The translations under genes were made by a program, and so were the position numbers. DNA of 64,000 nucleotides from assembly GCF_044324785.1 (NCBI RefSeq), contig NZ_CP172127.1; one strand, written 5' to 3'. Source of the stretch: Escherichia coli. GTDB taxonomy: Bacteria; Pseudomonadota; Gammaproteobacteria; Enterobacterales; Enterobacteriaceae. The notes beneath the pieces are model-generated. The model worked only from the letters and a program-made list of their open reading frames with translations, did no database searches and had not been told where the DNA came from. Shown here in pieces: positions 35,731 through 64,000 of the stretch. Within the stretch, counting starts at the first letter, position 1. Each line of letters opens with the position of its first letter.

Positions 35731-35782
35731 CGTGCCATAATTGGCTGTGTCAGTTGGTTACACACCATTGAGGTGTGTACTA

Positions 35783-36661
35783 ATGAAAATACTGCCCGTT
35801 GTCTCCACAAAAGGTGGCGAAGGTAAATCAACACAATCCGCAAACCTGGCTGGTTTTCTCGCCGATGCAGGTATCCGTACCCTGCTGATTGACGGAGATC
35901 ATGCTCAGCCCACGGCAAGCAACATCTTTCCGCTGACATATGAAGCGTCAGCCGGTCTTTTTGAGTTGCTGATGCGCACGGCTGACCTCAGTCATCCCGA
36001 TAACATCATTTCCCGCACGGCTATCGACGGACTCGATCTGATAGTCTCCAATGACCCTCATGAGCAGTTAAAAACTGCGATGCTTCACGCCCCGGATGGT
36101 CGTCTGCGCCTCCGGAATGTCCTGCAGCATCCGCTTTTTCTGAACAACTACGATGTCATTGTAGTTGATTCTCAGGGAGCACGTTCTGTCATGCTCGAAA
36201 TGATTATGCTGTCGGCCACTGATTCGGTTGTCGGGATGGTCAATCCGGTACTCCCTGATGTGCGCGAGTTTATTCGGGGCACTGTCAATGTTATGGAGAA
36301 CCTGCTGCCTTACCGGGAGCTGGGGATACCCCTGCCGAAAGTACGCACGCTGGTTAACTGCATGGATTATACGGCACTGGCCAGGAAGACGCTGGATGAG
36401 CTGGCCGGAATTATTCAGACCGGTCGTTACAGCAGACAGTTACCTGAAGGTGCGGTTTCCCTTCTTTCCACACAGATTTACGACCTGAATATTTACAAGC
36501 AGGGGCATGCGGCTGGTCAACCCGTACATCGTCTCGAAAAAGAATCCACACGTCGCAGTGATTCCGCGCTTGTCACGATGCACAGCCTGGCCTGTGAACT
36601 CTTTCCTGAGTGGAAACAGGCGTTTGACGGGCTGCTGGCGAACGGGGGAATACGTCAGTGA
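35783..36661 (+). CDS. parA: ParA/Soj-family partition ATPase
   Basis: MKILPVVSTKGGEGKSTQSANLA deviant Walker A; first gene inside the ICE boundary. Confidence 0.9.
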   Translation: MKILPVVSTKGGEGKSTQSANLAGFLADAGIRTLLIDGDHAQPTASNIFPLTYEASAGLFELLMRTADLSHPDNIISRTAIDGLDLIVSNDPHEQLKTAMLHAPDGRLRLRNVLQHPLFLNNYDVIVVDSQGARSVMLEMIMLSATDSVVGMVNPVLPDVREFIRGTVNVMENLLPYRELGIPLPKVRTLVNCMDYTALARKTLDELAGIIQTGRYSRQLPEGAVSLLSTQIYDLNIYKQGHAAGQPVHRLEKESTRRSDSALVTMHSLACELFPEWKQAFDGLLANGGIRQ

Positions 36662-36749
36662 TTCAGGTTAAGCGAGAACCATGCAGCTCCGTTACCCTGG
36701 CTTATGGACGTTATCAATACCGGACAATATGACGAGAAGGATTAACCCT

Positions 36750-37244
36750 ATGAATAACAGCAGCAATACCACAACCCGTAATACGCTTTCACCCGTTGAG
36801 TCAGCCTGTCATGCCTTACTGGATTTTATTGCCCGGGAAGTTTTTGAGAATAAAGCACCGGAAGAGGACGTCAGGGAACGTTGCAAAGTATTTACAGCGC
36901 TGCTTAACGAAGGATTTAAAGCCCTGCTTGATGAGGCAGGGCTGAATCTGTCAAACCTTCGTAAACAGTGTGAGGAACTGGAATCTCAGATAACCAGACT
37001 TGATTCTCAGTCCGATGCTATTTGTCGCAGAGGTGCTCAAATTGAACGCTTCATTGGTCACCATTTACCTTTTTTCGATTTGAACAAAGTTTTTGATACT
37101 GCCAGTCAGTCATGTGAACCAGCGCCTTCTCCGGCTCAGTCGGCTGTGTCCAGTAGTCAGCCCAGTAATCTGTCAGAGCAAGGGACATCTCAGCGGGTGT
37201 CATCTGTTCAACCGTTGCAGGGAGCCAGTGATGTTGATGAATAA
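36750..37244 (+). CDS. Hypothetical ICE protein (coiled-coil)
   Basis: ORF with RBS GAAGGA before ATG 36750; 3' third overlaps a convergent ORF and may be over-extended. Confidence 0.45.
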   Translation: MNNSSNTTTRNTLSPVESACHALLDFIAREVFENKAPEEDVRERCKVFTALLNEGFKALLDEAGLNLSNLRKQCEELESQITRLDSQSDAICRRGAQIERFIGHHLPFFDLNKVFDTASQSCEPAPSPAQSAVSSSQPSNLSEQGTSQRVSSVQPLQGASDVDE

Positions 37245-37527
37245 GAGCAAACTTAACGGCTTGTTGAACGCTGATACTGTTATCGTCCAGAAAAAACCAG
37301 CGGCGGCTGTTAATCAGCCAGTGTCCGAGCCAGCAAAGTCGGTAAGCGAGCTTCCGGTCAGCTCCGGGAAAGATTTCTGTTCCCTGGTCAAAGAAGGTTT
37401 TGCACCGTTCCACATCGTCGGTGCTCATACCTCCGACTTTCCAGTTTTCATAATATTTTGCCATGTTGCCATCCTCATCATGGTTGTTATCAATGCCGGA
37501 CGGCAGTTGCTGATGATTTGTGTTCAT
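37051..37527 (-). CDS. Hypothetical protein (Trp-rich), antisense to the ICE operon direction
   Basis: About 158-aa ORF with protein-like composition (YWADYW, HQHHW); overlaps the 3' end of 36750-37244. Confidence 0.4.
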   Translation of the reverse strand: MNTNHQQLPSGIDNNHDEDGNMAKYYENWKVGGMSTDDVERCKTFFDQGTEIFPGADRKLAYRLCWLGHWLINSRRWFFLDDNSISVQQAVKFALIHQHHWLPATVEQMTPAEMSLALTDYWADYWTQPTEPEKALVHMTDWQYQKLCSNRKKVNGDQ

Positions 37528-37735
37528 AAGGTATTTCTCTTCGTAAACATGTTGATTATGAGCGCAAATATGCTGTACGTACCTTCTGACCGGGGTCGGC
37601 AAACTTACCGGTCGGAAAATGTACAGACAGTTATGGGCCTTTTATGCCCTGCAACTGTTCGTCCGGCACCCGTTTTCGTTTTTTTGCATGGTGGGTTTGC
37701 TGTGAAACAGGCTCCGTTTGCCCGGGAGGTGGCGT

Positions 37736-39124
37736 ATGTCTGAACGCTATATTCCACGCTCCGTTGATGCAGAGCAGGCCGTGCTGGGCGGCCTGATGCT
37801 CGATAATGAACGCTGGGATGAGGTGGTACTGATGCTCCGGGGGGAGGATTTTTCTCTGGCCGCACACCGGGTGATATTCCGCACCATGTCAGAGCTGGCA
37901 ACCAGCGGTCAGCCGTTCGACCTCATCACGCTGAGTGAGCATATTGAGAAAACAAACAATATTGAGGCACTGGGTGGTTTCGCTTATCTGGCTGAACTCA
38001 GCAAAAATACGCCTTCTGCAGCCAATATTATCGCTTATGCCCGTATTGTTGCTGAAAAGAGCATGCTGCGTCAGTTGCAGGAGACGGGGAATGCGCTGAT
38101 TACGGATGTGGCCGCACCGGATGCGACACCACGCACTGTTCTTGAATCCGCTGAACGTCGGCTCTTTTCACTTTCACAGACTGGCATGTTGCATGAGCGA
38201 TGTGAAGTCAGTCTCACCTCGGCTATGGAGCTGGCGCTGCGTCAACTGGAAGAGGGACTGAACGCCGGCGGGATGACGGGCACGCCCACGGGATTTGATG
38301 AACTGGATAAGATGACCTGTGGTCTGCAGCCCGGCGACCTCATTCTTCTGGCTGCACGCCCGTCTATGGGGAAAACAGCGCTGGGCCTTACCTTCTGTCT
38401 TAATGCCCTGTGTAACCGGACCGATGAAACGGTATTTCTTTTCAGTATCGAAATGTCCCGGGAGCAGCTGATTCTGCGTGTCCTGTCAATGCTCTCCAGG
38501 GTGGAGCTGACACGTCTTCGCAGCAGCATGATGAATGATGAAGAGTGGGCGAGAGTCACGGCAACCATGGGACGCTTCATGAATGAAGCGTCATTCATCG
38601 GAGATGGAAACCGCCTGATAATTGATGACACCTCCTTCCAGACGCCGTCATCGCTGCGTGCCAGCGCCCGTCGTTATGTCCGTCTGTATGGCAGACCTTC
38701 CCTGATAATGGTTGATTACCTCCAGCTGATTCGTTCTCCGGACCAGGAGAACCGAACGCAGGAAATTGCGGAAATATCCCGCGCCCTTAAGGCGTTAGGT
38801 AAAGAGCTGGGATGCCCGGTACTGGCACTGTCTCAGCTTAACCGTCAGGTGGAGCAGCGGGCGGATAAGCGCCCCAATAACGGTGACCTGCGTGATTCCG
38901 GGGCGCTGGAGCAGGATGCTGACCTCATTATGTTTATTTACCGTGATGAGGTTTATAACTCTGGCACGCTGGATAAGGGCGTTGCTGAAATCATTGTGAG
39001 CAAACAGCGGCAGGGGCCAACCGGAACGATACGGGTGAACTTCGACGGCCGCTACACCCTGTTTTCACCGTTTGAACGTGGATGGAATTTTGACCGTGCC
39101 GGAGGAAATGCGTATGTCAATTAA
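37736..39124 (+). CDS. DnaB-like replicative helicase (ICE-encoded)
   Basis: N-terminal DnaB domain (EQAVLGGLMLDNERWDEV), Walker A ARPSMGKTALGL, C-terminal RecA-like motifs; RBS GGAGG. Confidence 0.9.
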   Translation: MSERYIPRSVDAEQAVLGGLMLDNERWDEVVLMLRGEDFSLAAHRVIFRTMSELATSGQPFDLITLSEHIEKTNNIEALGGFAYLAELSKNTPSAANIIAYARIVAEKSMLRQLQETGNALITDVAAPDATPRTVLESAERRLFSLSQTGMLHERCEVSLTSAMELALRQLEEGLNAGGMTGTPTGFDELDKMTCGLQPGDLILLAARPSMGKTALGLTFCLNALCNRTDETVFLFSIEMSREQLILRVLSMLSRVELTRLRSSMMNDEEWARVTATMGRFMNEASFIGDGNRLIIDDTSFQTPSSLRASARRYVRLYGRPSLIMVDYLQLIRSPDQENRTQEIAEISRALKALGKELGCPVLALSQLNRQVEQRADKRPNNGDLRDSGALEQDADLIMFIYRDEVYNSGTLDKGVAEIIVSKQRQGPTGTIRVNFDGRYTLFSPFERGWNFDRAGGNAYVN

Positions 39125-40766
39125 ACGAAATCATTCCGTTGATCTGGGAGCTGCCATCATGCAACCGGGCCGTCAGGCCAGCACGACGGGTAACGTGGTG
39201 GCGCTGGGGGAAACACCGATGATTCTGACGCTGGATCAACTGCGCCCCAACCCGGATAACCCGAGGACCACGCGTAATCCCCGGTACGACGATATTAAAA
39301 GTTCAATTTTCTCCCGTGGACTGGATACGGTGCCCAAAGTCACCCGGATACCTGAGAGTGAGCCGGATATCTATATTTTCAGCGATGGTGGTAACACGCG
39401 ATATCAGATCCTGAAAGAGCTGTGGGAGGAGACCGGCGATCAGCGTTTCTATCGTATTCATGTGCTTTTCAAGCCATGGCCGGGACGGCTTCAGTGCGTC
39501 ATTGGTCACCTGGCTGAGAATGAAGTCAGGGGCGAACTGACGTTTATTGAAAAGGCCCGGGGTATCCATAACGCCCGGATGATTTATGAGGAGTCGATGC
39601 AGCGAACCGTGACGATCAGGGAACTGGCGTCACTGCTGACGGATGAAGGACTTCCGGTAAGCCACTCATCTGTCAGCAGGATGGAGCATACTCTGAAATA
39701 TCTGTATCCGTGGATCCCCGATCTTCTGGAATCAGGATTAGGAAGACCGCAGATCAATTCACTGTTGTCTCTCCGGCAGGATGCGGAACGCATCTGGGGA
39801 CAGTTTGCGGTGGCAACAGAGAACGGGGCGGATTTTGACCGCGTGTTTGGTGAATGCTGCAGCAAATTCAATTCACCGGAGCTCTGGTCACTGGAGATGT
39901 TCCGGGATGAGCTGATTGGTGATCTGCTGAAAGCGTTACCACATCCGGTGCTGGATTATGACCGCTGGTTGCTTGAACTGGATCCGCGGGAGCGTAACCG
40001 ACGTCACCATTTTGGCGAACCTGAGCCGGTGCTCATTCCCGCAGACAGTGATGCGATGCCAGAGCCTGCGACTGACGGTGTGTCGGCAGTGACGGCGGAG
40101 AAGAACAGCGGAAGGGAGCAGTCTGTGATTTCCGCACCGGCTGACCATGACACCGTCATGAATACGGAGCAATCCCCGGCTGGAAAGGCGGAGAGTTCAG
40201 TTATCGAACAACGCGAAGAACGCCGTAGAAAGGAAGTCCAGCCGGATATGTATGGTGGTGAAGAAACATACAGCGGCGATTACGAAGAGGATGGCGATAC
40301 CCGTGATGCTGCGGATCTGCCGGTAACGTCACCGGAAGAGGGGGCTCAGCAGAGCAGCGGTGAAATATTCAGTGAGCCGGTATTCAGTGTTGGTGAACTG
40401 GATGATATCGAATATCTGCAGAATGAGGCATTTCACCTGGCATGGGAGCTGGCGTCACACACAGGCTGTGTCGATGAGCTGGCTATGGACAGGGAAAGCG
40501 AACTGTCTGCGGGATTCGGCGCGGCAGAGGCGAATTGTTCTCCGGTCATGGCATTTCTTGTCAGACTGACCGGTGAGGAGGTTCTGCGGGTCAATCCGGT
40601 TTCCCTTGATGCACTGCTGATAGGCGGCAGTACTGAAGAAGACCTGCCGTTGCTTGATGATGAACATGCAGGAAAGTTGCTTCGCCTGCTGGGTGTGTTG
40701 CGTCGTCTGCGGGGGCTGCAGCGTATGGTGGAAGACGAGAGTGAGGAAGGGCGCGATGAATGCTGA
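39114..40766 (+). CDS. ParB-like nuclease-domain protein (ICE ParB family)
   Basis: N-terminal ParB/Srx-like domain followed by a long acidic low-complexity C-terminal region. Confidence 0.75.
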   Translation: MSIKRNHSVDLGAAIMQPGRQASTTGNVVALGETPMILTLDQLRPNPDNPRTTRNPRYDDIKSSIFSRGLDTVPKVTRIPESEPDIYIFSDGGNTRYQILKELWEETGDQRFYRIHVLFKPWPGRLQCVIGHLAENEVRGELTFIEKARGIHNARMIYEESMQRTVTIRELASLLTDEGLPVSHSSVSRMEHTLKYLYPWIPDLLESGLGRPQINSLLSLRQDAERIWGQFAVATENGADFDRVFGECCSKFNSPELWSLEMFRDELIGDLLKALPHPVLDYDRWLLELDPRERNRRHHFGEPEPVLIPADSDAMPEPATDGVSAVTAEKNSGREQSVISAPADHDTVMNTEQSPAGKAESSVIEQREERRRKEVQPDMYGGEETYSGDYEEDGDTRDAADLPVTSPEEGAQQSSGEIFSEPVFSVGELDDIEYLQNEAFHLAWELASHTGCVDELAMDRESELSAGFGAAEANCSPVMAFLVRLTGEEVLRVNPVSLDALLIGGSTEEDLPLLDDEHAGKLLRLLGVLRRLRGLQRMVEDESEEGRDEC

Positions 40767-42307: not shown

Positions 42308-42316
42308 GGTGGAAAG

Positions 42317-42776: not shown

Positions 42777-42787
42777 AGGAGATTGAT

Positions 42788-43536: not shown

Positions 43537-43537
43537 T

Positions 43538-52904: not shown

Positions 52905-53483
52905 ATGAAAATATCCCTTCTTTTTTCCGCGCTGTCTGCCTGTGTGTTGCTGGCGGGGTGCCAGAGTCCGCAAAAACTGCAGCAGAGGGCGGCTGCCGTC
53001 CCGGTACCGTCGGTGACAGTCAGCAACAATGTCCGTCCGGCAAATCCGGATGTGTACGCCGGTGCGGCGACACCGGAGGTGGTGCGTTATGACCGCTATC
53101 TGCTGGTTAACACGGCACCGGATACGGTACAGCGTGACCCGCTTTCCCAGGTGATTGACATCCGCATTCCGGCATCACTGAAGCCGACGGTGGCGGATGC
53201 GATGCGTTATGCCCTGAAACAGTCCGGCTACACACTCTGCGCCACGGGGCCTGCCAACGGTGTGCTCTACCGTCAGCCGCTACCGGCCGTGCAGTACCAG
53301 ACCGGGCCGGTCAGACTGCGGAGCGCGCTGCAGATGATGGCGGGGCCGGCATGGCAGCTTGAGGTGGATGATGTGCAGCGCGTGGTCTGTCACAGTCTGC
53401 GTGAGGGTTATCAGTTACCGGCACGCCAGCTGGCGCCGGTACCGGCGGTGGTGAAGGTATCCGGTGCGGAGCAGAAAAAATGA
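52905..53483 (+). CDS. pilL: PilL-like lipoprotein (first gene of the GI-type T4SS module)
   Basis: 192 aa; lipoprotein signal with lipobox LLAGC; position and size match the PilL-like gene of PAPI-1/SPI-7-type elements. Confidence 0.6.
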   Translation: MKISLLFSALSACVLLAGCQSPQKLQQRAAAVPVPSVTVSNNVRPANPDVYAGAATPEVVRYDRYLLVNTAPDTVQRDPLSQVIDIRIPASLKPTVADAMRYALKQSGYTLCATGPANGVLYRQPLPAVQYQTGPVRLRSALQMMAGPAWQLEVDDVQRVVCHSLREGYQLPARQLAPVPAVVKVSGAEQKK

Positions 53484-54259
53484 GTGAAAAGCAACAGGAG
53501 ATATCAGCCGCTGCAGGTGGTTCAGGTGGCACCACACCGTCAGGAAGGGCGAAACGGCGTCCCTCTCCCGGTCTGTTCGCAGGGCTGGTGACGGTGGTGA
53601 TGATGGCGATCGCGGTTGCCGGTCTGGTTCGTTATACGGGAGAGCAGGACAGGCGAATGACTGCGCTGGCGGTGCAGATGAAGGCGTATTCTGATGCGCT
53701 CGCCTTGTCCGGAACGGAACTGGTACCACTGAGGGAGAGGCTGGCTGAGACCGAAAAACAGCTGAAGAGTGTGGCGGAACGTATTTCTCAGCTGGAAAAG
53801 CGTCCTGCACTGACGGAGGAAGAGCATGCGCGTACGGGAGAGATGGCCGCCAGCCTGGCATCACTGCAGACCTCACTGGCGCAACAGGGAGAAACGCTTC
53901 GCACGTATGAGCAGCGACTGGAGAAGGTGGAGAAGACTTCAGTCACCCCGGTATCACCGTCATCTGCGAAAGGCGCGGGCGGGACGATGAAGGGCACAGC
54001 GGCGGTTGCGCCACAGAAGAAACGAATGTCTGCCGGCGTGCCGGTGGTCAGTCGTACCGCGCCGTTTGTTCTGACCGGGACAGAGCAGCGGGGAGGCCGT
54101 ACGTATGCGGCAGTGGCCCCCCGTGGATTCAGCAGTCTTGCTGATGTGACGTTACTGGGTGAAGGGGAGAGCACGACAGGCTGGGTGCTTGAGCGTGCAG
54201 GACGTGGCGAGGCCACGTTCCGGGTGAATGGTCGTCAGGTCCGGGTCATGGTGGAGTGA
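53480..54259 (+). CDS. Conserved ICE T4SS-region protein (coiled-coil, one TM segment)
   Basis: 259 aa; TM helix LFAGLVTVVMMAIAVAGLV then coiled-coil; translationally coupled. Confidence 0.5.
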   Translation: MSEKQQEISAAAGGSGGTTPSGRAKRRPSPGLFAGLVTVVMMAIAVAGLVRYTGEQDRRMTALAVQMKAYSDALALSGTELVPLRERLAETEKQLKSVAERISQLEKRPALTEEEHARTGEMAASLASLQTSLAQQGETLRTYEQRLEKVEKTSVTPVSPSSAKGAGGTMKGTAAVAPQKKRMSAGVPVVSRTAPFVLTGTEQRGGRTYAAVAPRGFSSLADVTLLGEGESTTGWVLERAGRGEATFRVNGRQVRVMVE

Positions 54260-54263
54260 GAAA

Positions 54264-54983
54264 ATGAAGCTGAAAAGTCTGTCACTGGCGCTCATGCTGC
54301 TGTCCCTGCAGGCGATGGCCGCCGTACAGGAGAGTACGCAGCAGGGAACGCGCACCTCCTCATCCTCTCAGGTCAGTACCACCACACAGGAACTGCAGCA
54401 GCAGGCCGGGCAGTGGGGACTCAGTGAGGAAGATTACCGGCGTTACCGTACCCTGATGGAAGGTCCCCGCGGTATTCAGTCTCCGGGGCTGGACCCGCTG
54501 ACGGTACTGGGGATTGAAGCGCGGACGGATGCAGAGCGCAGGGTGCTGGCCGAAAAATGGGTTAAAGCTGAGTATGAACGCACTGAGAAGGAACTGGCTT
54601 TCCAGCGTGAAGTGAATGCCGCCTGGAAACGGTTGTATCCGGGGGTGATGCCGGTCAGCCTGGGGAATTCTGCCGGCATCGCCCGTGACACCGGGGGACG
54701 TCTTGCCCTGTTTGTCAGGTCGAAAGACTGCAGTACCTGTGATGCGCGGCTGGCCGCCGTGCTTTCATCCGGTCGTCAGGTGGATATTTACCTGGTCGAC
54801 AGTCAGGGAAATGATGAAAAGCTGAGGCAGTGGGCCCGGGAGCACAGTATCCCGGCAGACCGTGTGCGCAGTCGCCACATCACGCTGAACCATGACGGCG
54901 GTCGCTGGCTGCGGTTTGGGGAGGGGAGAATGCCGGTGGTACTTCAGCAGGGGGCTGACGGATGGCGCGTGGCAGCCTTCTGA
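54264..54983 (+). CDS. Conserved ICE periplasmic protein (signal peptide; CxxC thioredoxin-like motif)
   Basis: Signal peptide MKLKSLSLALMLLSLQAMAA; CSTC motif; RBS GGAGTG. Confidence 0.5.
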   Translation: MKLKSLSLALMLLSLQAMAAVQESTQQGTRTSSSSQVSTTTQELQQQAGQWGLSEEDYRRYRTLMEGPRGIQSPGLDPLTVLGIEARTDAERRVLAEKWVKAEYERTEKELAFQREVNAAWKRLYPGVMPVSLGNSAGIARDTGGRLALFVRSKDCSTCDARLAAVLSSGRQVDIYLVDSQGNDEKLRQWAREHSIPADRVRSRHITLNHDGGRWLRFGEGRMPVVLQQGADGWRVAAF

Positions 54984-55618
54984 TGTCGCTGCTGCTGATG
55001 GCAGTCAGCATTCCGGCGGGGGCGGCGCTGCATGATATCCCGGAGGGATACGTGCGTGTGGCGGAACAGCATGGTGTTCCGGCAGAAGTACTCTATGCCG
55101 TCTCGCTGACCGAGACGGCCATGGTCCCCTCCGCCATTGGTGCTGTAATGAAAAAACGGAATGAGGATTACAGGGTACCAGCAGTGGCACGTCCCTGGCC
55201 CTGGACCATCAATGTGGCGGGCCGGGGATACCGCTATGCCAGTCGACTGGAGGCCTGGCAGGCCCTCCAGGTTTTTCTGAAACGATATCCGGCCCGACGG
55301 ATTGATGTGGGGATAGCCCAGGTCAATCTGGGCTGGAACGGGCACCGTTTTGCGTCCACATGGGCGGCATTTGACCCGTACACCAGTCTGAACACGGCGG
55401 CGGTCATCCTGAGAGAATGTCGCCGTCGCCATCCTGACAGCTGGCTGCAGGCTGCCGGCTGTTATCACCATCCGGCAGGCGGCGCACCCGCAGTACGCTA
55501 CATCGCGCTGGTGAGGCGGCATATTGACCGCCTCCACCGTGATGCGGTCAGTACGTCAGGTGTGACTGCCATGAATCCCCGTTATATCCGGACAGAACCC
55601 CGGGAGTTAACCCCATGA
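54962..55618 (+). CDS. Lytic transglycosylase (SLT domain, VirB1-like)
   Basis: 218 aa with signal peptide; SLT-type motifs (EVLYAVSLTETAM, PWPWTINV, IAQVNLGW). Confidence 0.7.
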   Translation: MARGSLLMSLLLMAVSIPAGAALHDIPEGYVRVAEQHGVPAEVLYAVSLTETAMVPSAIGAVMKKRNEDYRVPAVARPWPWTINVAGRGYRYASRLEAWQALQVFLKRYPARRIDVGIAQVNLGWNGHRFASTWAAFDPYTSLNTAAVILRECRRRHPDSWLQAAGCYHHPAGGAPAVRYIALVRRHIDRLHRDAVSTSGVTAMNPRYIRTEPRELTP

Positions 55619-56142
55619 AACGATTTAAACGATATGTCATGACGACCGCAACGGGTCTGTTGCTGTGCGCGGCTCAGGCCGGCGCGGAGCTCAGGGTGAT
55701 TGCTGACCTTGGTGGCAGTGATGCCGGCAGGTTTTATGAAGCAATAAACCGCCAGGCGGACAGCGGAACGTCGTCGCCTGTCACGGCGCTGCTGCCGCAG
55801 GGGGAGAGTGCGATGCTGCCTGTTTCCACGCCGGAAATGTCTCCCGGAGAGGTGACGCCGAGGCCACTGCAGTTACCGGGGCTGGGGGCACTGTTCCTCG
55901 TGGGGGATGATGCACTCTCCCGTCAGTGGCTGCAGGCGAATGCGGCCGCGCTGCTTGAAAGGAAGGCTGCCGGTATGGTGGTGAGCGTGACGAATGAGAG
56001 CGGTCTGCAGGCGCTGCGGGCGCTGGCTCCCGGTGTGATGATGGTACCGGCTTCCGGTTCAGCACTGGCCCGCCGTCTGCAGCTTGACCACTGGCCGGTG
56101 CTGATAACGGACAGTGGTATCAGCAGTGTGGTGATGCCGTGA
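55615..56142 (+). CDS. Conserved ICE secreted protein
   Basis: 175 aa with signal peptide (LLLCAAQAGA); operon context. Confidence 0.5.
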   Translation: MKRFKRYVMTTATGLLLCAAQAGAELRVIADLGGSDAGRFYEAINRQADSGTSSPVTALLPQGESAMLPVSTPEMSPGEVTPRPLQLPGLGALFLVGDDALSRQWLQANAAALLERKAAGMVVSVTNESGLQALRALAPGVMMVPASGSALARRLQLDHWPVLITDSGISSVVMP

Positions 56143-56732
56143 TGCAGAGACAACTGACGGACCTGTTACAGGAAGGCGCGTGGCACGGCATTCTGCTGTG
56201 CGTTCTGGTCGTGCTGTTTCTGTTTTTTCCGCGCCTGTGGGGGCGATGCAGGCATCGTGAACGCGCCAGTGAGCGTCGTCACCGCCGTTACCGCGCTGCG
56301 GCTGAACGTGTGCTGACAAAGCTGCCGGAAGGTGGGGCGGGTGTGAAATACCTGCGAAAAATTAACCCGTATGTGTTTGAAGAACTGCTGCTTCTGGCGT
56401 TTGAACGCAGGGGGATGGCGGTCATCCGTAACACACGTTACAGCGGAGATGGTGGCCTGGATGGTCAGGTGCTGATTGACGGCGAGCGGTGGCTGATTCA
56501 GGCCAAACGTTACGGACGGACCATCCGTCCGTCGCATATTGATGATTTTGGTGACCTGCTGCGCCGTGAAGGCTGCCGTGGATTTTTTATTCACACCGGT
56601 CGTACGGGACCTGCCAGCCGGGCACGGCTGGCGCTGTGGCCGGATATTGAGCTGGTCAGCGGGCAGCGTCTGCTGAAACTGCTGAACGGGGCATTGCTGC
56701 CGGATGAACTTACCAGAGGAGCGCGGAGATGA
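56139..56732 (+). CDS. Membrane-anchored restriction-endonuclease-like (Mrr-cat, PD-(D/E)xK) protein
   Basis: 197 aa; N-terminal TM helix (ILLCVLVVLFLFF), then Mrr-catalytic-like motifs YVFEELLLLAFERRGM, SGDGGLDGQVL, LIQAKRY. Confidence 0.6.
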   Translation: MMQRQLTDLLQEGAWHGILLCVLVVLFLFFPRLWGRCRHRERASERRHRRYRAAAERVLTKLPEGGAGVKYLRKINPYVFEELLLLAFERRGMAVIRNTRYSGDGGLDGQVLIDGERWLIQAKRYGRTIRPSHIDDFGDLLRREGCRGFFIHTGRTGPASRARLALWPDIELVSGQRLLKLLNGALLPDELTRGARR

Positions 56733-57241
56733 TGACGGTAAAACGGATGTTTATGTTTTTATTCAGAATAACGATTGTCTGGCCATCCGTGCTGACAGGA
56801 TGCGTGATGATGCTGTATTTCGCGAAGGTCGCCGGCGGTGGTGTGGCGGGACTGGAGCAGCGTTACGGGGTGGAATCCGCCCGCTGGCGTGATGCGCCGG
56901 AAGGGATGGTGATGACAGTGCAGTGCCCGTCGCGTCCCTTTATGGCGTCTGTGAGCACCGGGGAGTGGCGTGCACTGGCTGCATCTGATGATGAATGCAG
57001 CCAGGTTTCGCGCTCTTTCAGAGAAGCTGCAGAGGGCGATGCGCAGTCGCTGCGCAGAGTGGCAGTGACACTGCTGCTGGCATCCGTGGTTCTGGAAGCG
57101 TTTTCAGCCTGCATTCTGCGCCGGGTAACGGCATCCGTCCGGGTATCACCACACTGTGGATATGGCTGCGGACGTGGTGCGGTGGCGCACTGGCCAGAGA
57201 GCAGCGTTCACACTGCACCGGAGAAAGGAGAGCGGGTGTGA
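56729..57241 (+). CDS. Conserved ICE lipoprotein
   Basis: 170 aa; signal peptide with lipobox-like LTGC. Confidence 0.5.
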   Translation: MMTVKRMFMFLFRITIVWPSVLTGCVMMLYFAKVAGGGVAGLEQRYGVESARWRDAPEGMVMTVQCPSRPFMASVSTGEWRALAASDDECSQVSRSFREAAEGDAQSLRRVAVTLLLASVVLEAFSACILRRVTASVRVSPHCGYGCGRGAVAHWPESSVHTAPEKGERV

Positions 57242-58023
57242 ACGTTTCATTTACTGAACAGGTGCAGAGGGATATGCCGCAATGGGCGAATGACCCGTTA
57301 CTGGCATGGGATGCCACCGCGTTTGCGGCAATGTCGGATTTTATTACAGAGCACTACTGGACGGGACAGGGCAGCATCAATGTGTTCCGCATTGTGGGAA
57401 CTGACCATCCACAGTATGCCGGAATGACCTGGCTGGAGCTGCTGGAGCGCGGTAACCGTATGGACATCAATATCCCGTTACTGGAAAAAAATCCGGGATA
57501 CTACACGCAGGCAGAGCAACAGCATGCCGGGATGAGTTTTGTCAGCACGGATGGCGTTGACTGGTATGTCAGTGCAGACGGCAATCACCGCAGTTGCCTG
57601 GCACGCTTTCTGTTTCACCTGCAGGGGGAGGAGCGCACACAGCTTCACAACGTGGCACAGAGTATTTATCACACAGACCGGGCGTTCTGGTCTGCCTGCC
57701 GGGAAATCCACAACCTGACTGACGCGCTGTCCCGGCATGGTGTGTATATCCGTCTGCAGACCCGACGGCAGTGTGTTGCCCGCGAAGACCTGGCCTGCTG
57801 GAAAGTGGACCGTTTCAGCACAGAGGCGCAGCTGACAGTGGATGACGTGCGTGCCGGCGGACATGATATGCCTGCGGTGTATAAGACGTTGCTGCTGAAT
57901 GCAGCAGACGCATGGCGTGAGGTGATGGTATTACAGCGCAGACTGGAGGCGCTGTCTGCATCACCGGGGAACGATTTGCCACGCACATGGTGGCGACGTC
58001 TTTTACGGAAGGGGGACATGTAA
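57238..58023 (+). CDS. Conserved ICE T4SS-region protein
   Basis: About 261 aa from GTG overlapping upstream stop; RBS AGGAGA. Confidence 0.5.
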   Translation: MNVSFTEQVQRDMPQWANDPLLAWDATAFAAMSDFITEHYWTGQGSINVFRIVGTDHPQYAGMTWLELLERGNRMDINIPLLEKNPGYYTQAEQQHAGMSFVSTDGVDWYVSADGNHRSCLARFLFHLQGEERTQLHNVAQSIYHTDRAFWSACREIHNLTDALSRHGVYIRLQTRRQCVAREDLACWKVDRFSTEAQLTVDDVRAGGHDMPAVYKTLLLNAADAWREVMVLQRRLEALSASPGNDLPRTWWRRLLRKGDM

Positions 58024-60140
58024 TGAGCAACCGCTATGTCATTGAGGCATTGCTGAGACCGGCTGTGGAGTTCAATACGGCAGTGGTGGCAGCAACAGCA
58101 GCATGTATCTGTGTGACAGCCCCCTGGGCGGTGGCGCTGGCACCCACCGTCAGTTACGCCACTGCCGGTGGATTTGCCCTGCTGGCCGTGGTGCGTTTCC
58201 GGCAGGGGATGAACATCATCCGGTATCGCCGTAATCTGCGCCGGCTGCCCCGCTATGTGATGAGTACACGGCAGATCCCGCTCAGCCGTCAGCGGCTGTT
58301 TCTGGGGCGGGGATTTCGCTGGACCCAGAAGCATACCCAGCGTCTCCAGGATACGCTGCGACCGGAGGTGGCACACTATCTGCAGCCGGGCGGACTTTAC
58401 CGGCTGGCGCGCTGGCTGGAAATGAAAACGGAACACCGTCTGCCCGCGCTGGGGAAACTGCTCCGGCATGAGTCGTCGCTGAATCCTGTGCGTCCTCTGC
58501 CGCCGGTGGGGGGAAATCCCGCCCTGCATGGTATTGAGCCGGATGAACAGGATGTGACGCTGGCTCTGGGGGAGCGTGTGGGGCATACCATTGTCTACGG
58601 CACCACCCGTGTCGGTAAAACCCGCCTGGCAGAACTGCTGGTCACTCAGGATATCCGCAGGGGAGAGGTGACCATTGTGTTTGATCCCAAAGGTGATGCT
58701 GATCTGCTGCTGCGTGTCTGGGCGGAAGCACACCGTGCCGGGCGGGGTGATGAACTGTATATTTTCCATCTGGGATGGCCGGAAATTTCGGCCCGATATA
58801 ATGCGGTGGGACGCTTCGGGCGTGTTTCGGAAGTGGCTTCCCGTGTGGCCGGTCAGTTGTCCGGTGAAGGGAACTCGGCGGCTTTCCGCGAGTTCGCCTG
58901 GCGGTTCGTCAACATCATTTCCCGCGCCCTGGTGGCACTCGGTGAGCGCCCGGACTACCTGCTGATTGTGCGGTATGTGAACAACATAGCCGATCTCTAT
59001 ATCCGCTATGCCGGAAAGGTGATCCGCGAGCGCATGCCGGAACTGGAGCAGGCGATTGCGAATAACCAGAATGTGATCAGCGAGGAGGATGTTCCCCGCA
59101 CCATGCAGAACCAGCCGGATGCGGTACGTATCTGGTCCATCGAGATGGCCCTGAGCAGTGAGGAGGGTAAAAAAATTTACGATCCGATCCTGGACGGGCT
59201 TCGCAGTGCGGTCCGCTATGACCGTACCTATTTTGACAAAATCGTGGCGTCCCTGCTGCCGCTGCTGGAAAAACTCACCACGGGCAGGATCGCAGAGCTG
59301 CTGGCACCGGACTATCTGGACATGAACGATGCGCGACCGATTTTTGACTGGGAACAGGTGATCCGTAAAAAGGCGGTGGTCTATATCGGCCTGGATGCAC
59401 TCAGCGACAGTGTGGTAGCCAGTGCTGTGGGGAATTCGATGTTTGCGGACCTGGTGAGCGTGGCGGGGCATATCTACAAGCACGGCATGCATGCCGGTCT
59501 GCCCGGTAAGGGGGAAGGCAAAAATGTGGTGAACCTGCACTGCGATGAGTTTAACGAACTGATGGGGGATGAGTTTATTCCGCTCATTAACAAGGGGGGC
59601 GGTGCCGGTATGCAGGTCACCGCGTACACCCAGACATCGTCAGATATTGAAGCGCGTATCGGTAATGCAGCCAAAACGGCGCAGGTTCAGGGAAACTTCA
59701 ACAACATGATCATGCTGCGTGTCAGGGAGAACAGGACGGCAGAGCTGCTGACCACACAACTGCCTCAGGTGGAGATCTACACCAAGACGCTGGTCTCCGG
59801 TCACCAGGATACGGCGGACGTGTCTGCCGGTCAGGATTTCACGTCCAGCACCCAGGATCGTGTCGGCACGGTGAAGGTACCTCTGCTGGAGCCGTCAGAT
59901 ATTGTCACCCTGCCCAAGGGACAGGCGTTTGCCCTGCTGGAAGGGGGGCAGTTGTGGAAAATCCGGATGCCGCTGCCGGCAGGGGATACGGATGACGTGC
60001 TGATGCCGGAGAACATTGCCCGGGTGGCAGAGGCGATGAGACAGAACTATCACACCGGTGAAGGATGGTGGAATGAGCCGCCGTCAGCGCAGGCCGCCGG
60101 AACAGATGAAGGAGGCGGATATGGCGGAAGCGCGTCGTGA
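58023..60140 (+). CDS. traD: Conjugative coupling protein TraD (VirD4-like, PAPI-1/PFGI-1 class)
   Basis: About 705 aa; N-terminal TM segments, Walker A GTTRVGKT, large cytoplasmic ATPase domain; ATG overlaps upstream stop (TAATG). Confidence 0.85.
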   Translation: MSNRYVIEALLRPAVEFNTAVVAATAACICVTAPWAVALAPTVSYATAGGFALLAVVRFRQGMNIIRYRRNLRRLPRYVMSTRQIPLSRQRLFLGRGFRWTQKHTQRLQDTLRPEVAHYLQPGGLYRLARWLEMKTEHRLPALGKLLRHESSLNPVRPLPPVGGNPALHGIEPDEQDVTLALGERVGHTIVYGTTRVGKTRLAELLVTQDIRRGEVTIVFDPKGDADLLLRVWAEAHRAGRGDELYIFHLGWPEISARYNAVGRFGRVSEVASRVAGQLSGEGNSAAFREFAWRFVNIISRALVALGERPDYLLIVRYVNNIADLYIRYAGKVIRERMPELEQAIANNQNVISEEDVPRTMQNQPDAVRIWSIEMALSSEEGKKIYDPILDGLRSAVRYDRTYFDKIVASLLPLLEKLTTGRIAELLAPDYLDMNDARPIFDWEQVIRKKAVVYIGLDALSDSVVASAVGNSMFADLVSVAGHIYKHGMHAGLPGKGEGKNVVNLHCDEFNELMGDEFIPLINKGGGAGMQVTAYTQTSSDIEARIGNAAKTAQVQGNFNNMIMLRVRENRTAELLTTQLPQVEIYTKTLVSGHQDTADVSAGQDFTSSTQDRVGTVKVPLLEPSDIVTLPKGQAFALLEGGQLWKIRMPLPAGDTDDVLMPENIARVAEAMRQNYHTGEGWWNEPPSAQAAGTDEGGGYGGSAS

Positions 60141-60882
60141 TGCGGAACGCAGCCCGCAGTCCCGGGCGCCCCGTCAGCATGGTCTGCTGTACAATCTGGT
60201 GTGGGGCTGGCCGTGGGCACTGGTGGGGCTGATTTTATCCTCCCTGCTGCTGAGTCTGTTGATTGAGTATGCCGGTATGACGTTTTTCTGGAGTGAGGAG
60301 GGGGCGGCGCACAGCCGCGCTGTCATGAACACGGAGCTGGGCTGGCTGTCAACGGAGTTCACCCGCAGTCTGCTGCTTTCCGCGCCGGCAGAAACGGTGC
60401 CGGCGTGGATTTCCGCCGCGTATCAGTGGCTGTTTGTGGACAGTGGCATGCAGACATGGCTGCATGCACAGCAGGCGGGGACGGCGGCAGGCAGAAGCGT
60501 GTCTGAATTCAGCAGTGAGCTGAGTCAGTGGCTGGCTTATCATCTTCATGACTACCTGCTGGCGACGGTGTATGTGACGGTGGTGACGATGGTCAGGGTG
60601 GTTATTCTCGTCCTGTCCGTTCCGTTGTTTGTGATGGTGGTTCTGGTGGCCGTTGTGGAGGGGCTGGGGCGCCGTGATTTGCGGCGTTACGGCGCGGCTT
60701 ATGAGTCCAGCTTTGTCTATCATCATGCAAAAAAATCAGTCAGACCGGCGATTTATGTCCCCTGCATTATTTACCTTTCCTGGCCCGGCGCGGTATATCC
60801 GAACCTGCTGATATGGCCGGCGGCCATGCTGCTGGGACTGGCGGTTACCGTGACTGTGGCATCGTTCAAAAAATATCTCTGA
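60121..60882 (+). CDS. Conserved ICE integral membrane protein
   Basis: About 253 aa; RBS GGAGG; several TM helices (WPWALVGLILSSLLLSLLIEYAG..., VVILVLSVPLFVMVVLVAVV). Confidence 0.6.
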   Translation: MAEARRDAERSPQSRAPRQHGLLYNLVWGWPWALVGLILSSLLLSLLIEYAGMTFFWSEEGAAHSRAVMNTELGWLSTEFTRSLLLSAPAETVPAWISAAYQWLFVDSGMQTWLHAQQAGTAAGRSVSEFSSELSQWLAYHLHDYLLATVYVTVVTMVRVVILVLSVPLFVMVVLVAVVEGLGRRDLRRYGAAYESSFVYHHAKKSVRPAIYVPCIIYLSWPGAVYPNLLIWPAAMLLGLAVTVTVASFKKYL

Positions 60883-60965
60883 TTCATGCGCCGGACACCC
60901 CGGTGCAAAACGTGTTTTGTGGCGGGGTGTCGGCAGACAAGCCACGTACTGACTGTCACAGCGCG

Positions 60966-61157
60966 TCAGCGTAAGAGCACCGGCAGCAAGGGAATGACAA
61001 CAATGGTGATGACGATGATGAGCAGGTTGATGCCCCTGATGACGTCATATAACCAGACAGGGCACTGTGGCTCTTCCCTGACGATATATAACACAACAAA
61101 AAACCAGGTAAGACTGAACAGGGCCCGGTACGGAAGGGCGGTGAGGAGAAATTCCAT
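60966..61157 (-). CDS. Possible small two-TM membrane protein, antisense to the T4SS operon
   Basis: 63-aa ORF with two hydrophobic helices in the gap between operon genes; no clear RBS. Confidence 0.2.
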   Translation of the reverse strand: MEFLLTALPYRALFSLTWFFVVLYIVREEPQCPVWLYDVIRGINLLIIVITIVVIPLLPVLLR

Positions 61158-61400
61158 GCTGATGTTTCCTCTTTACGGGGGGTCATTAGCGGGAAACTGT
61201 AGTGATGACCTGTTTCAGTAAACAGAAAAAATCATTAAAGATGGAATAAAATTGCGCCCCGGCGCGGGGATATGTTCCGGCATTCAGCCATGTCCGTTTT
61301 CCCTTAAAAATTTTCAGTTTTACAAATAGAGTTTATCGCTGACCGGCACACCTGCCTTCTTCATGCTGTACGCACCCACAGATTCTTAACGGAGGTGCGT

Positions 61401-61742
61401 ATGTTTTCTCTTCCCGCATTTCCCCGGCGTGCCGCTGCCCTGGCAGGTACTACCGGGATGATGCTTCTTGCCATTGTGGCTGTGCCGGTTCAGGCCGCCG
61501 AAAAGGATGAGCTGGCAACGGCCATGCGCCAGCTTGACCAGGTACGGGCGGCGCTTGACCGTGCCAGAACGGCATCCCTTCAGGCCACGCCTCATGACGG
61601 GCGTTATTTCTTCGACTACCCGCGCGCACAGGCTGACATTCAGACCATGCAGGCGGGTATTGACCGTTATCTCACGCCGTCCCGTGCCCAGCCCCGAAAC
61701 GGCAGTGCCGTGACCGGTGAATACCGGCGGGAGCGTCCCTGA
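61401..61742 (+). CDS. ICE protein, RAQPRD family
   Basis: Signal peptide then motif SRAQPRN near the C-terminus matching the RAQPRD signature; RBS GGAGG. Confidence 0.7.
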   Translation: MFSLPAFPRRAAALAGTTGMMLLAIVAVPVQAAEKDELATAMRQLDQVRAALDRARTASLQATPHDGRYFFDYPRAQADIQTMQAGIDRYLTPSRAQPRNGSAVTGEYRRERP

Positions 61743-61984
61743 TGGCGCTGACGTCGGCACAGATCACGGCCTTTAAGGTGGCATCCGGTGATGTGGATCT
61801 GAATGTGGTGCATCTGACATCGGTGGGAATGCTGGTTGCCGTTCTCTTTCTCTGGGCCGCCTGGGGACTGTCGGATGCATGGTCCGGGTGGCGTAACGGT
61901 GACGTCAGGGAATCTGCGTTTATCTGGTTTACCGTCCGTACCGCACTGCTGCTTGTCAGCAGTATCTGGATGTTTGCGGGCTGA
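61742..61984 (+). CDS. Small ICE membrane protein
   Basis: 80 aa, two hydrophobic helices; start overlaps upstream stop (TGATG). Confidence 0.55.
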   Translation: MALTSAQITAFKVASGDVDLNVVHLTSVGMLVAVLFLWAAWGLSDAWSGWRNGDVRESAFIWFTVRTALLLVSSIWMFAG

Positions 61985-62011
61985 TTTTCCGTTTTCTTTA
62001 AGGAGACATAT

Positions 62012-62377
62012 ATGTTTAAAAACGCTTTTACTTTCCGTCACCTGCGTCTGGCGGGAATGGGGCTGATTGCTTTTCTGCTGGGCAGTCTGACCCCGGCACT
62101 GGCCGATTTGCCCAAAATTGAGCCGCCATCATCCGGTGGGGGTGGTGGTTTTTTTAATCAACTCAAAGGCTATATCCAGGATGGCATTGTGCTGTTTGGT
62201 CTGGTAGTTGCAGCGGCGGCCTTTGTGAAGGTGGCGGAGGCTGCCGTTACCACTTTTTCTGAGGTGCGTGACGGCAAGACGGGCTGGGGACAGTTCGGGG
62301 CCATTATCGTGGTCGGGGTGGTGCTGCTGGTTGCGGTTATCTGGCTGCTCGGCAAATCCGCGAACATCATCCTGTAA
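62012..62377 (+). CDS. Conjugative pilin-like membrane protein (VirB2-like)
   Basis: 121 aa; signal peptide, Gly-rich linker, two hydrophobic helices; RBS AAGGAG. Confidence 0.55.
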   Translation: MFKNAFTFRHLRLAGMGLIAFLLGSLTPALADLPKIEPPSSGGGGGFFNQLKGYIQDGIVLFGLVVAAAAFVKVAEAAVTTFSEVRDGKTGWGQFGAIIVVGVVLLVAVIWLLGKSANIIL

Positions 62378-62396
62378 TCCACCAGGAGGGCTGTTT

Positions 62397-62762
62397 ATGG
62401 AAACCATTCGTTTTCTGCCCGATCGTCTGAATGCCGAACCGACGGTGTTCCGGGGATTCACCACGCCAGAGCTGGGTCTGGCCGCACTGAGCGGTGTCTT
62501 TCTCGGTCTTCTCTGGACACTGCCACTGATACCGCTGTTCGGCTGGGTGATTATTCCCACCGGTGCCCTGCTCACTCCACTGCTTCTGGTCTGGACCGGC
62601 GGCGTGTGGATCACCCGGCTGAAACGGGGCAAACCGGATAACTGGCTCTGGCAGCGTATTGAAGAGAAAAAAGCGGCGCTGGGTGTGGGGCGCCCTGCAT
62701 TTATCAGGGAAGCACAGGGCTGGTCCCTGCGTCGTTCCCGCGTCAGGGGAGGAAAAGGATGA
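62397..62762 (+). CDS. Small T4SS membrane protein (VirB3-like)
   Basis: 121 aa; RBS AGGAGG; two TM helices. Confidence 0.55.
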   Translation: METIRFLPDRLNAEPTVFRGFTTPELGLAALSGVFLGLLWTLPLIPLFGWVIIPTGALLTPLLLVWTGGVWITRLKRGKPDNWLWQRIEEKKAALGVGRPAFIREAQGWSLRRSRVRGGKG

Positions 62763-63406
62763 GTCGTTTTCGTCATGCCCTGCAGGATCGTGACCAGCAT
62801 ATTCTGACGCTTCGTGTGTTCAGTGGTGTGCTGGCGGGGCTGCTTCTGATGGTCACCCTCGGCTGGATGTCTGCACCTGACCGGCTGACCATCCATAATC
62901 CACCTGATTTACGTTCCGGCAGTACCCGTCCGTGGTGGGAGGTTCCGCCTTCCACTGTCTATTCCTTTGCGTATTACATTTTCCAGCAACTGAATGCCTG
63001 GCCGAAAAACGGTGAGGTGGATTATCCGGCAAAAATTCATGCCCTGTCGGCCTATCTGACACCGTCGTGCCGGGAAATCCTTGAAACGGATGCACGACGC
63101 CGTAAGGACGCGGGGGAACTGCTGGATCGTGTTCGTGTGGTGTATGAGATCCCTGAGCACGGTTACGGCGGACGTTACAACCGTAATCCGGTCACGGTGG
63201 AAGGCCGGGACAACTGGCAGGTTCGTCTCGACCTGGTGGTGGATGAGTATTTTCATGCTGAGCCGGTCAAACGGGCGCTGGTCCGCTATCCGATGAAGGT
63301 GGTGCGTATGGAGGGCGATCCGGAACTTAATCCGTTTGCTCTGGCGCTGGACTGTTACAGCTCCACGCCGCAGCGTCTGGAAGCCGTGAAGGGAGGTGGT
63401 GAATGA
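62759..63406 (+). CDS. Conserved ICE T4SS protein (N-terminal TM anchor)
   Basis: 215 aa; translationally coupled. Confidence 0.55.
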   Translation: MSRFRHALQDRDQHILTLRVFSGVLAGLLLMVTLGWMSAPDRLTIHNPPDLRSGSTRPWWEVPPSTVYSFAYYIFQQLNAWPKNGEVDYPAKIHALSAYLTPSCREILETDARRRKDAGELLDRVRVVYEIPEHGYGGRYNRNPVTVEGRDNWQVRLDLVVDEYFHAEPVKRALVRYPMKVVRMEGDPELNPFALALDCYSSTPQRLEAVKGGGE

Positions 63407-64000
63407 GAACCTGTGTACTGCGCAACCTGCTGCGTCCTGCCGCTGTGATGTTGTCGCTGTCAGTGATGTCCCTGACGGCGCAGGCAGATGAACTGATGAA
63501 GTGGGAGCGTATTCCGCTGGATGTCCCGCTGATGGTGGGGCAGGAGCGGGTCATTTTTGCCGATAAAAACGTGAGGGTGGGCTTTCCGCCGGCACTGAAC
63601 GGCAGGCTGCGGGTGCAGAGCACCGGCGGTGCCGTTTACCTGAAAGCGGACAGCGCGTTTCCGAAAACGCGGATCCAGCTGCAGGATGTGGAAAGCGGGG
63701 AGATGATCCTGCTGGATGTGACGGCCGCAGAAAAGGGGCCCACTGAGCCTGTCCGGATTGTGTATGACGGGGAGGTGAACACGGTGAGCCGTGCCGGCGG
63801 CAGCGCTCCGGAGAGCGCGAAGGCGGGCAGCAGTGACGGACGTCCCGGGAAAGTCGGTGCGGATGACGGCACGCAGGCCCGCCGGACCGCCCCCCGTTAT
63901 GACGAGCCCTTGCCGGTTCTGCTGACCCGGTATGCGGCACAGTCCCTGTATGCTCCGCTGCGCACCCTTGAACCGGTTGCGGGGATCAGACCGGTGGTGC
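63403..64000 (+). CDS. Conserved ICE T4SS periplasmic protein (partial; runs off window)
   Basis: RBS GGGAGGTGG before ATG 63403; signal peptide; frame stays open to the window end. Confidence 0.55.
   Translation, partial: MRTCVLRNLLRPAAVMLSLSVMSLTAQADELMKWERIPLDVPLMVGQERVIFADKNVRVGFPPALNGRLRVQSTGGAVYLKADSAFPKTRIQLQDVESGEMILLDVTAAEKGPTEPVRIVYDGEVNTVSRAGGSAPESAKAGSSDGRPGKVGADDGTQARRTAPRYDEPLPVLLTRYAAQSLYAPLRTLEPVAGIRPVV

Follow-up and report, generated by a model that had tools for sequence, protein, structure and literature searches.

Integrative and conjugative elements (ICEs) that belong to the SPI-7/PAPI-1/PFGI-1 class carry at one border a conserved cluster of genes that runs from ParA to TopB (PMC3334931, PMC3739013). 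In Escherichia coli the class includes ICEEc2 of strain BEN374 (Roche et al. 2010), which papers citing that description place in the pKLC102/PAPI family and at the phe-tRNA genes pheU and pheV. The partition of the excised elements of this widespread family is "not well understood", and deletion of soj, the ParA gene of PAPI-1, led to loss of the element (PMC4489591). In PFGI-1, repeats with inverted repeats lie directly upstream of the PFL_4669 gene, contain TG(T/G)TG...CA.CA as quoted, and have been called a putative oriV (PMC2647930); similar repeats have been cited for pKLC102, SPI-7, PAPI, and ICEHin1056. Here, we analyzed a stretch of 64,000 nucleotides of E. coli DNA (contig NZ_CP172127.1; hereafter the window). 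Positions 35732-64000 are confirmed by sequence as the parA-proximal part of an ICE of this class, ICEEc2-like, with close copies in several avian-pathogenic strains, and a new by-product of the analysis suggests that a repeat array in the same slot as the PFGI-1 repeats is a tandem parS-like centromere for the ParAB system of the ICE.

The identity of the element draws on the family membership of its genes, their collinearity with relatives, an attachment (att) fragment, and a nearly identical element that is complete and annotated. An NCBIfam scan placed 19 open reading frames (ORFs) above the curated cut-offs of families built for PFGI-1/SPI-7-class ICEs; they form part of a continuous run of ORFs on the plus strand from 35.7 to 64 kb (table 1), and the order of hits is that of the reference locus tags (STY4528 before STY4534; PFL_4669 before PFL_4695 before PFL_4703). 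An earlier sequence-only reading had claimed the same-strand gene order of a PAPI-1/pKLC102/SPI-7-family ICE backbone, and both order and backbone are borne out by the NCBIfam and Pfam hits at the window coordinates: TraD, the RAQPRD protein, and the small membrane proteins all belong, above curated cut-offs, to families of GI-type (MPF_G) ICEs. The border maintenance cluster ParA-DnaB-ParB-DUF2857-DUF1845(AcaB)-TopB-Ssb is complete, and all backbone ORFs within the window are intact. Traits of the SPI-7 subfamily are present in the form of NF040583, NF040582, and NF040584 matches above cut-off together with a tRNA-Phe fragment; the type IVB pil operon that in this subfamily directly follows the ssb region was not found there, the position being taken by a PilL-like gene and then type IV secretion system (T4SS) genes. 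The elevated GC content claimed relative to the neighboring island (0.36-0.48 at 29-35 kb) applies mainly to the T4SS part (0.56-0.62 at 53-64 kb) and is weaker at 35-53 kb (0.50-0.55). The description of the region as the "leading" 28 kb holds in the sense of the first part of the element, not as a direction of transfer from oriT, and the Rpn nuclease, Mrr-like protein, and array, which had been taken for non-canonical content, are conserved features of the lineage that recur in relatives rather than odd insertions.

From 35676 to 64000 the window aligns end to end with an element of the avian pathogenic E. coli (APEC) strain E19035 (NZ_CP126926), at 99.8% identity over 28.3 kb. The E19035 element is about 78 kb long and consists, in order, of dicD and tRNA-Phe (pheU), an integrase, a TraI domain (TIGR03760, MOBH), a UvrD-like helicase, a type IVB pil operon with shufflon near the integrase, cargo (including a type III restriction-modification system and ArdA), a T4SS including a TIGR03744 ATPase, the maintenance module, and parA. 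Its gene order and array type are those of the window, with 21.8 array copies against 22.8. No ICE relaxase or integrase is encountered before the window ends, and both are present in E19035: a tyrosine recombinase adjoins the intact tRNA-Phe, the PFGI-1-class MOBH relaxase (TIGR03760) scores 193 bits against a cut-off of 161, and the VirB4-like ATPase (TIGR03744) scores 1401 bits against 521. Variants of the element occur in other E. coli genomes, and in many E. coli genomes the match to the query is partial. Regarded as annotation, the result is ordinary: the element type, ICEEc2-like, is already known and is annotated in public E. coli genomes.

The likeness to ICEEc2 is one of published description, and unlike ICEEc2 and the E19035 element, the ICE stands here in tandem with a different neighboring island. 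The SPI-7 family (Salmonella Typhi SPI-7; Seth-Smith et al. 2012) shares with the window the DnaB, STY4528, and STY4534 families and the tRNA-Phe site. An SPI-7-like Salmonella locus (L089) has the same order, ParA-DnaB-ParB-DUF2786-DUF2857-ParE-like-STY4528-repeats-AcaB-TopB-DUF3577-Ssb-Rpn-like, but continues right after the Rpn-like gene with a type IVB pil operon (TcpQ-PilM-PilN-PilO), and its array comprises 9 copies of 63 bp with TGCTGAGC half-sites, compared with 22.8 copies of 36 bp. In the Serratia plasmid pE36_1 the stretch from ssb to the T4SS is the same as in the window. The Pseudomonas elements PFGI-1, pKLC102, PAPI-1, and ICEclc have the same T4SS and TraD families (TIGR03743-03759, RAQPRD, PFL_4669, PFL_4695, PFL_4703) and likewise a ParA/Soj gene at the border, whereas they occupy tRNA-Lys or tRNA-Gly sites; PFGI-1 further differs by having four 46-bp repeats instead of 23 of 36 bp, and an order of ssb and topB that is inverted relative to the window.

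The left border of the ICE is marked by the last 50 nt of tRNA-Phe, which occur once in the window and are intact. By its sequence this fragment represents the parA-side att repeat of the ICE, where the element joins the neighboring island; its end at 35731 coincides with the point from which the sequence-only reading had counted the element. ARAGORN called no tRNA in the whole window, and the fragment was located by eye and pattern search. The sequence on its left side leads, in other E. coli genomes, into an intact tRNA-Phe, the match to the window ending at 35735, which indicates that the ICE entered a phe-tRNA gene already holding the island and displaced the native 3' half. About 50 bp separate the att repeat from the ATG of parA (35783), which fits the rise in soj expression on excision of PAPI-1 (PMC4489591). 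In E19035 (L003 14417-14492), the functional tRNA-Phe beside the ICE integrase differs from the canonical one by a variant T-arm (GTCGGTGGTTCGATTCCGCCTC), indicating that the 3' half of this tRNA was supplied by the attP of the ICE. A 78-nt "tRNA-Ser" in RefSeq (L001 11858-11935; L087 1-35) consists of the tRNA-Phe 3' fragment and adjacent ICE sequence, and is probably a spurious call at an att junction.

Given these gene families, excision would be catalyzed by a tyrosine recombinase encoded beyond the window, and the resulting circle would be replicated and maintained by the module ParA-DnaB-ParB...STY4528-array-AcaB-like-TopB-STY4534-Ssb. Transfer as single-stranded DNA would require the MOBH relaxase together with TraD and the T4SS of GI type, the first genes of which lie at 52.9-64 kb.

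Each unit of the array, TGGTGCCACTGGCACCA CGGTACAAAAAATAAGCGA, is formed by a 17-bp palindrome and an A-tract. The palindrome, TGGTGCCA-C-TGGCACCA, is parS-like and is found at 23 sites in the array and at none elsewhere in the ICE part with up to two mismatches. The array follows the STY4528-family gene at a distance of 18 bp and lies directly upstream of the PFL_4669 (AcaB-like) gene. Canonical chromosomal parS is TGTTNCACGTGAAACA, and plasmid centromere arrays bound by ParB-family proteins are known from F (sopC, bound by SopB) and RK2 (the KorB operators). The outer TGTT...AACA of canonical parS is common to the palindromes of many relatives, for example those of Proteus and Providencia (TGTTTCCA-C-TGGAAACA), whereas parS has 16 bp and the ICE palindrome 17 bp with a central base, and the E. 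coli variant in the window reads TGGTG. As in F and RK2, tandem palindrome repeats are combined with a helix-turn-helix (HTH) protein of ParB fold encoded with ParA, a combination that is predicted here from sequence.

A wider sample of one genome per species gave 77 Enterobacterales loci, 67 of them with both the STY4528 and the AcaB-like gene. TGnTGnnn-n-nnnCAnCA palindromes beside A-tracts were found in the interval between these two genes in 55 of the 67 loci, often recurring with a period of 36 bp or of 106-118 bp, and numbering 6-26 copies in E. coli compared with 1-9 outside E. coli. It should be noted that the contigs of many drafts (L008, L029, L062, L063, L071, and L080-L082) break off at the AcaB-like gene or shortly upstream of it; assemblies appear to break in the arrays, and the copy numbers of genomes that are not complete are therefore probably too low. 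A search around the array of the window gave no sigma-70-like promoter, and the many terminator-like hits there are the repeat palindromes themselves. Two 278-aa ORFs that run through the array in different frames on the minus strand (46005-46846) are almost certainly repeat artifacts; in RefSeq relatives, "hypothetical proteins" are annotated over the array on either strand, and each unit also scores as a terminator-like hairpin on the minus strand.

The ICE ParB is recognized by no Pfam model; its structure model (pLDDT 85) matches the PDB folds of KorB, Noc, Spo0J, and ParB-parS, all with a probability of 1.00. In this model the HTH comprises aa 168-197 (window ~39594-39695), with the recognition helix starting at His184 (39663-39665); an HTH protein of ParB fold is encoded together with a ParA ATPase, as expected of a ParABS system. 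Comparison of base 3 of the palindrome half-site with ParB residue 184 in 41 loci, representing 21 unique pairings of a half-site with a recognition helix, revealed a simple rule: A occurs with Gln, G with His, C with Asn or Asp, and T with Ala, Phe, Tyr, Ser, or Ile. The rule is obeyed in 20 of the 21 combinations, with at least three independent switches between C and T, and the Salmonella locus, which was outside the set from which the rule was derived, also fits (TGCTG with Asn). The alignments of ParB(41-300), of the AcaB-like protein, and of the STY4528 protein were scanned without bias, column by column, across 36 non-redundant Enterobacterales loci; residue 184 of ParB was the best predictor of base 3, leaving 0.09 of 1.70 bits, with 0.40 bits left by the next best column. 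No covariation of base 3 with the STY4528 "initiator" was seen. Taken globally, palindrome distance was only weakly correlated with the identity of either the AcaB-like or the STY4528 protein, which was uninformative. These data suggest the array to be a tandem parS-like centromere: its palindromes would be bound by the element's own ParB through the HTH, His184 as first residue of the recognition helix would read base 3 of the half-site, and ParA, ParB, and array together would form a ParABS partition system for the excised circle.

A natural experiment is provided by eight E. coli elements, in which two backbone clades, defined by STY4528 and topB (~80-85% identical between clades), are combined with two types of array and AcaB-like gene in a two-by-two design. 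Units agree at 31-36 of 36 positions within an array type and at 21-27 of 36 between types, regardless of backbone. Elements of the same backbone but different type have 96-100% nucleotide identity outside three segments that are common to both backbones, besides a few extra diverged bins in the backbone-A pair that are not diverged in backbone B. The first is a patch of ~250 bp in parB, which corresponds to the HTH (ESMQRTVTIRELASLLTDEGLPVSHSSVSRMEH in one type, EQLSKSVSMRELSSLLTEQGLPVDASSISRMEN in the other); the second comprises the array and the AcaB-like gene, the latter with 55% nucleotide identity between types and flanks of 97-99%; and the third is the intergenic region from topB to the STY4534-family gene, which contains the STAXI RNA/ssDNA motif. 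This motif occupies the same slot in relatives (L001 26310-26463, L083 11966-12117, L084 14973-15279, L089 13252-13426), and its variant swaps along with the ParB patch and the array/AcaB-like type: type 1, in the window and L084, has two weak tandem hits (62-70 bits), and type 2, in L001 and L083, one strong hit (134-139 bits). Folded as single-stranded DNA, the STAXI region was not more stable than shuffled sequence (z = -1.4). The three segments may constitute one specificity set that resists recombination between otherwise homogenized elements.

In an alternative reading, the array would be a replication origin (oriV) of iteron type and the STY4528-family protein its reader, in line with the putative initiator plus repeat array of the sequence-only reading. 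NCBIfam labels the family a replication protein, its gene ends 18 bp from the array, the corresponding repeats upstream of PFL_4669 are called putative oriV in PFGI-1, pKLC102, and ICEHin1056, and the A-tract and TG.TG conserved between array types could be read by an invariant protein. We nevertheless consider this explanation rather unlikely, as the specificity of the array tracks ParB and not STY4528. The window and E. coli 5CRE51, whose array has 24 copies at a 36-bp period and the palindrome TGTTGGCA-G-TGCCAACA, have STY4528 proteins that are 98% identical, yet their units have only 22 of 36 positions in common, the 14 differences including the palindrome. In the two-by-two comparison within E. 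coli, furthermore, array type does not depend on the STY4528 clade, no STY4528 column predicts base 3 as well as ParB residue 184, and PFGI-1 is stated to encode no Rep protein (PMC2647930). The array may, however, be both centromere and origin. A slightly less probable candidate again is the AcaB-like (PFL_4669) protein, which would read the array in place of ParB and activate the downstream topB-ssb-T4SS genes. AcaB is a ribbon-helix-helix-like DNA-binding activator of IncC plasmids, and the PFL_4669 protein is a full-length homolog by both Pfam (AcaB, PF08900; 2.6e-74, model positions 2-215 of 215) and fold, the only significant PDB match in a Foldseek search being AcaB 6n8a (E 2.8e-5, TM 0.57-0.66); PDB sequence and profile searches returned chance hits only, so that AcaB was found by fold search alone. 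The gene lies directly downstream of the array, both swap as one block in E. coli, and the divergence of the gene between types, with conserved flanks, extends to the protein (48% identity between the window and 5CRE51). Adjacency alone nevertheless accounts for the co-inheritance of gene and array, Xenorhabdus elements with TGCTG and TGTTG sites have identical beta-strand segments in their AcaB-like proteins, the best AcaB column leaves 0.40 bits compared with 0.09 for ParB, and an identical AcaB-like protein accompanies two variants of the inner palindrome (L001 and L087).

The last of these observations also weighs against the centromere proposal, the ParB proteins of L001 and L087 being identical as well while the inner palindrome positions differ. 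Further points on this side are that the evidence for the centromere, being drawn from sequence, consists of covariation; that largely identical sets of loci served to derive the rule and to test it; that the rule has one exception, L014 (His with T); that the half-sites of many loci outside E. coli are defined by one to three palindromes; that in E. coli the swaps also take in the AcaB-like gene and the STAXI region, which may share or own the specificity; and that homologous repeats carry the name of putative oriV in the literature. With regard to the ICE itself, the window stops at 64000, with the relaxase, integrase, VirB4-like ATPase, and second att of this copy beyond it, so that a truncation is possible, and excision and transfer of this copy are predicted from gene families. 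A truncated or immobilized remnant in place of a functional ICE appears improbable, more so than either alternative for the array: 28 kb are visible, and relatives show insertion sequences (IS66 in the Rpn gene of YZLc1-3) and partial copies, but the window has no disrupted backbone ORF, its backbone ORFs share 99.8% identity with those of a complete element, and the att fragment is intact. Taken as one, the identity and setting of the ICE, the life cycle expected from its family, and an array centromere read by ParB very probably represent the best explanation of the locus. For the more general proposal that the "oriV-like" arrays of the SPI-7/PAPI-1 family are centromeres read by the ICE ParB via the residue-184/base-3 switch, and that the elements fall into specificity types, we see belief and doubt in balance.

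Table 1. Features of the ICE and its left border, in window coordinates.
Feature	Position	Strand	Basis
P4-type integrase of the older neighboring island	34321-35535	-	now faces displaced tRNA 3' half
Displaced native 3' end of tRNA-Phe (last 50 nt)	35682..35731	-	exact match to E. coli tRNA-Phe 3' part
ParA/Soj-type partition ATPase	35783-36661	+	weak generic ParA/MinD (P-loop) NCBIfam hits; "ParA family protein" in the E19035 copy
SPI-7-type replicative helicase DnaB	37736-39124	+	NF040583, 684 bits (cut-off 655)
ICE ParB	39114-40766	+	TIGR03764, 378 bits (cut-off 144)
Small accessory genes: DUF2786, DUF2857, ParE-like, DUF7446, ead/Ea22-like remnant, HNH endonuclease, hypotheticals	40756-44467	+	annotation of near-identical copy
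STY4528-family "pathogenicity island replication protein" (putative initiator)	44729-45994	+	NF040582, 387 bits (cut-off 130)
Repeat array, 36 bp x 22.8	46012-46832	.	TRF
PFL_4669-family/AcaB-like (ex-DUF1845) regulator homolog	46965-47645	+	TIGR03761, 234 bits; Pfam AcaB, 2.6e-74
DNA topoisomerase III TopB	47658-49676	+	TIGR01056, 813 bits
Two tandem STAXI motif copies (61-bp repeats)	49955-50261	+	Rfam RF01728, 66 and 62 bits (gathering 40.5); TRF 61 bp x 2.9
STY4534-family ICE replication protein (DUF3577)	50386-50850	+	NF040584, 198 bits (cut-off 160)
Ssb	51166-51723	+	TIGR00621, 171 bits
Rpn-family PD-(D/E)XK nuclease/putative transposase	51770-52714	+	TIGR01784, 120 bits (cut-off 52)
PilL-like (PilL2-type) lipoprotein	52905-53483	+	above curated cut-off
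TIGR03759	54264-54983	+	NCBIfam
SLT-type transglycosylase	54962-55618	+	weak Pfam hit, E 8e-4
PFL_4695 family	55615-56142	+	NCBIfam
Mrr_cat, membrane-anchored	56142-56732	+	Pfam, 2.4e-19
Type IV coupling protein TraD (PFGI-1/TOL class)	58023-60140	+	TIGR03754, 1087 bits (cut-off 648); TIGR03743, 881 bits (cut-off 366)
MPF_G T4SS genes	60121-64000	+	TIGR03747, RAQPRD, TIGR03758, TIGR03745, TIGR03750, TIGR03746, TIGR03749

Within the maintenance module, a small ORF lies between the STY4534-family gene and ssb (stretch 50386..51723, plus strand). The HNH endonuclease among the accessory genes gave weak hits only; the phage-like genes at 42561-44467 (ead/Ea22-like remnant, HNH endonuclease, small ORFs) differ in content among otherwise near-identical E. 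coli elements, which marks this interval as a local hotspot of gene turnover. All E. coli relatives examined have the Rpn gene, the Serratia plasmid lacks it, and a homolog with 36% identity follows ssb in the same slot of the Salmonella element; in E. coli YZLc1-3 (L087 16527-20175) it is split by an insertion of the IS66 family (ISCro1).

In the T4SS part, the MPF_G proteins TIGR03745, 03746, 03747, 03749, 03750, 03758, and 03759, RAQPRD, PFL_4695, and PilL are all above curated cut-offs and in the order of the family, the TIGR03749 gene being cut by the window end. A gene for a coiled-coil protein is located between the PilL-like gene and TIGR03759 (stretch 52905..56142, plus strand), and two hypothetical genes separate the Mrr_cat gene from traD (56142..58023, plus strand). 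An Mrr_cat gene also lies between the PFL_4695 homolog and traD in Serratia pE36_1, and more than 2600 plasmids, most of them conjugative and the IncL/M (pOXA-48-like) backbone among them, encode homologs of the small window protein. PADLOC gave only weak hits, for Rpn, Mrr, and HNH, and assigned no defense system. In ICEclc, TIGR03745 corresponds to the candidate pilin IceB2, TIGR03746 to IceB8, and TIGR03749 to IceB9, the RAQPRD gene is dispensable, and the homolog of TIGR03750/DUF3487 is an essential protein with two transmembrane (TM) segments and no similarity to VirB3 that could be detected in sequence or structure (PMC10018362). By analogy, the TIGR03745 protein of the window is a candidate VirB2-like pilin (IceB2-like), a PDB sequence search with which gave no match, and TIGR03750 a candidate two-TM inner-membrane protein; of the VirB2/VirB3-like genes proposed from the sequence, the former is therefore retained, and "VirB3-like" expresses an analogy of size and topology only.

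The cargo of the neighboring island (window 14001-35535), which includes an autotransporter, a TonB-dependent receptor, and IS66, is 99.9% identical to a selC (tRNA-Sec) island in FDAARGOS_1287 and other strains, but is joined here to the phe-tRNA-type P4 integrase instead of the selC integrase. The two integrases have 64% identity overall and are identical in their last ~68 residues, and the one in the window looks like a hybrid produced by intragenic recombination.

As annotation alone, these results place a known type of ICE at the phe-tRNA hotspot of an extraintestinal or avian-type E. coli. ICEs of this type carry virulence and resistance cargo, and ICEs at pheV/pheU have recently been shown to be capable of mobilizing large parts of the chromosome in an Hfr-like manner and of giving rise to hybrid clones (PMC13127887). 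The new by-product, the suggested reading of the array as a centromere with covariation of ParB residue 184 and base 3, would, if true, provide a defined centromere and a predicted specificity residue for the partition of ICEs, both directly testable, and its specificity types (here "TGGTG/His") would give a way to type these elements. The E. coli arrays, with their 6-26 copies, would then represent unusually large centromeres, and the three co-adapted segments may be determinants of incompatibility or compatibility, letting related ICEs coexist or exclude each other.

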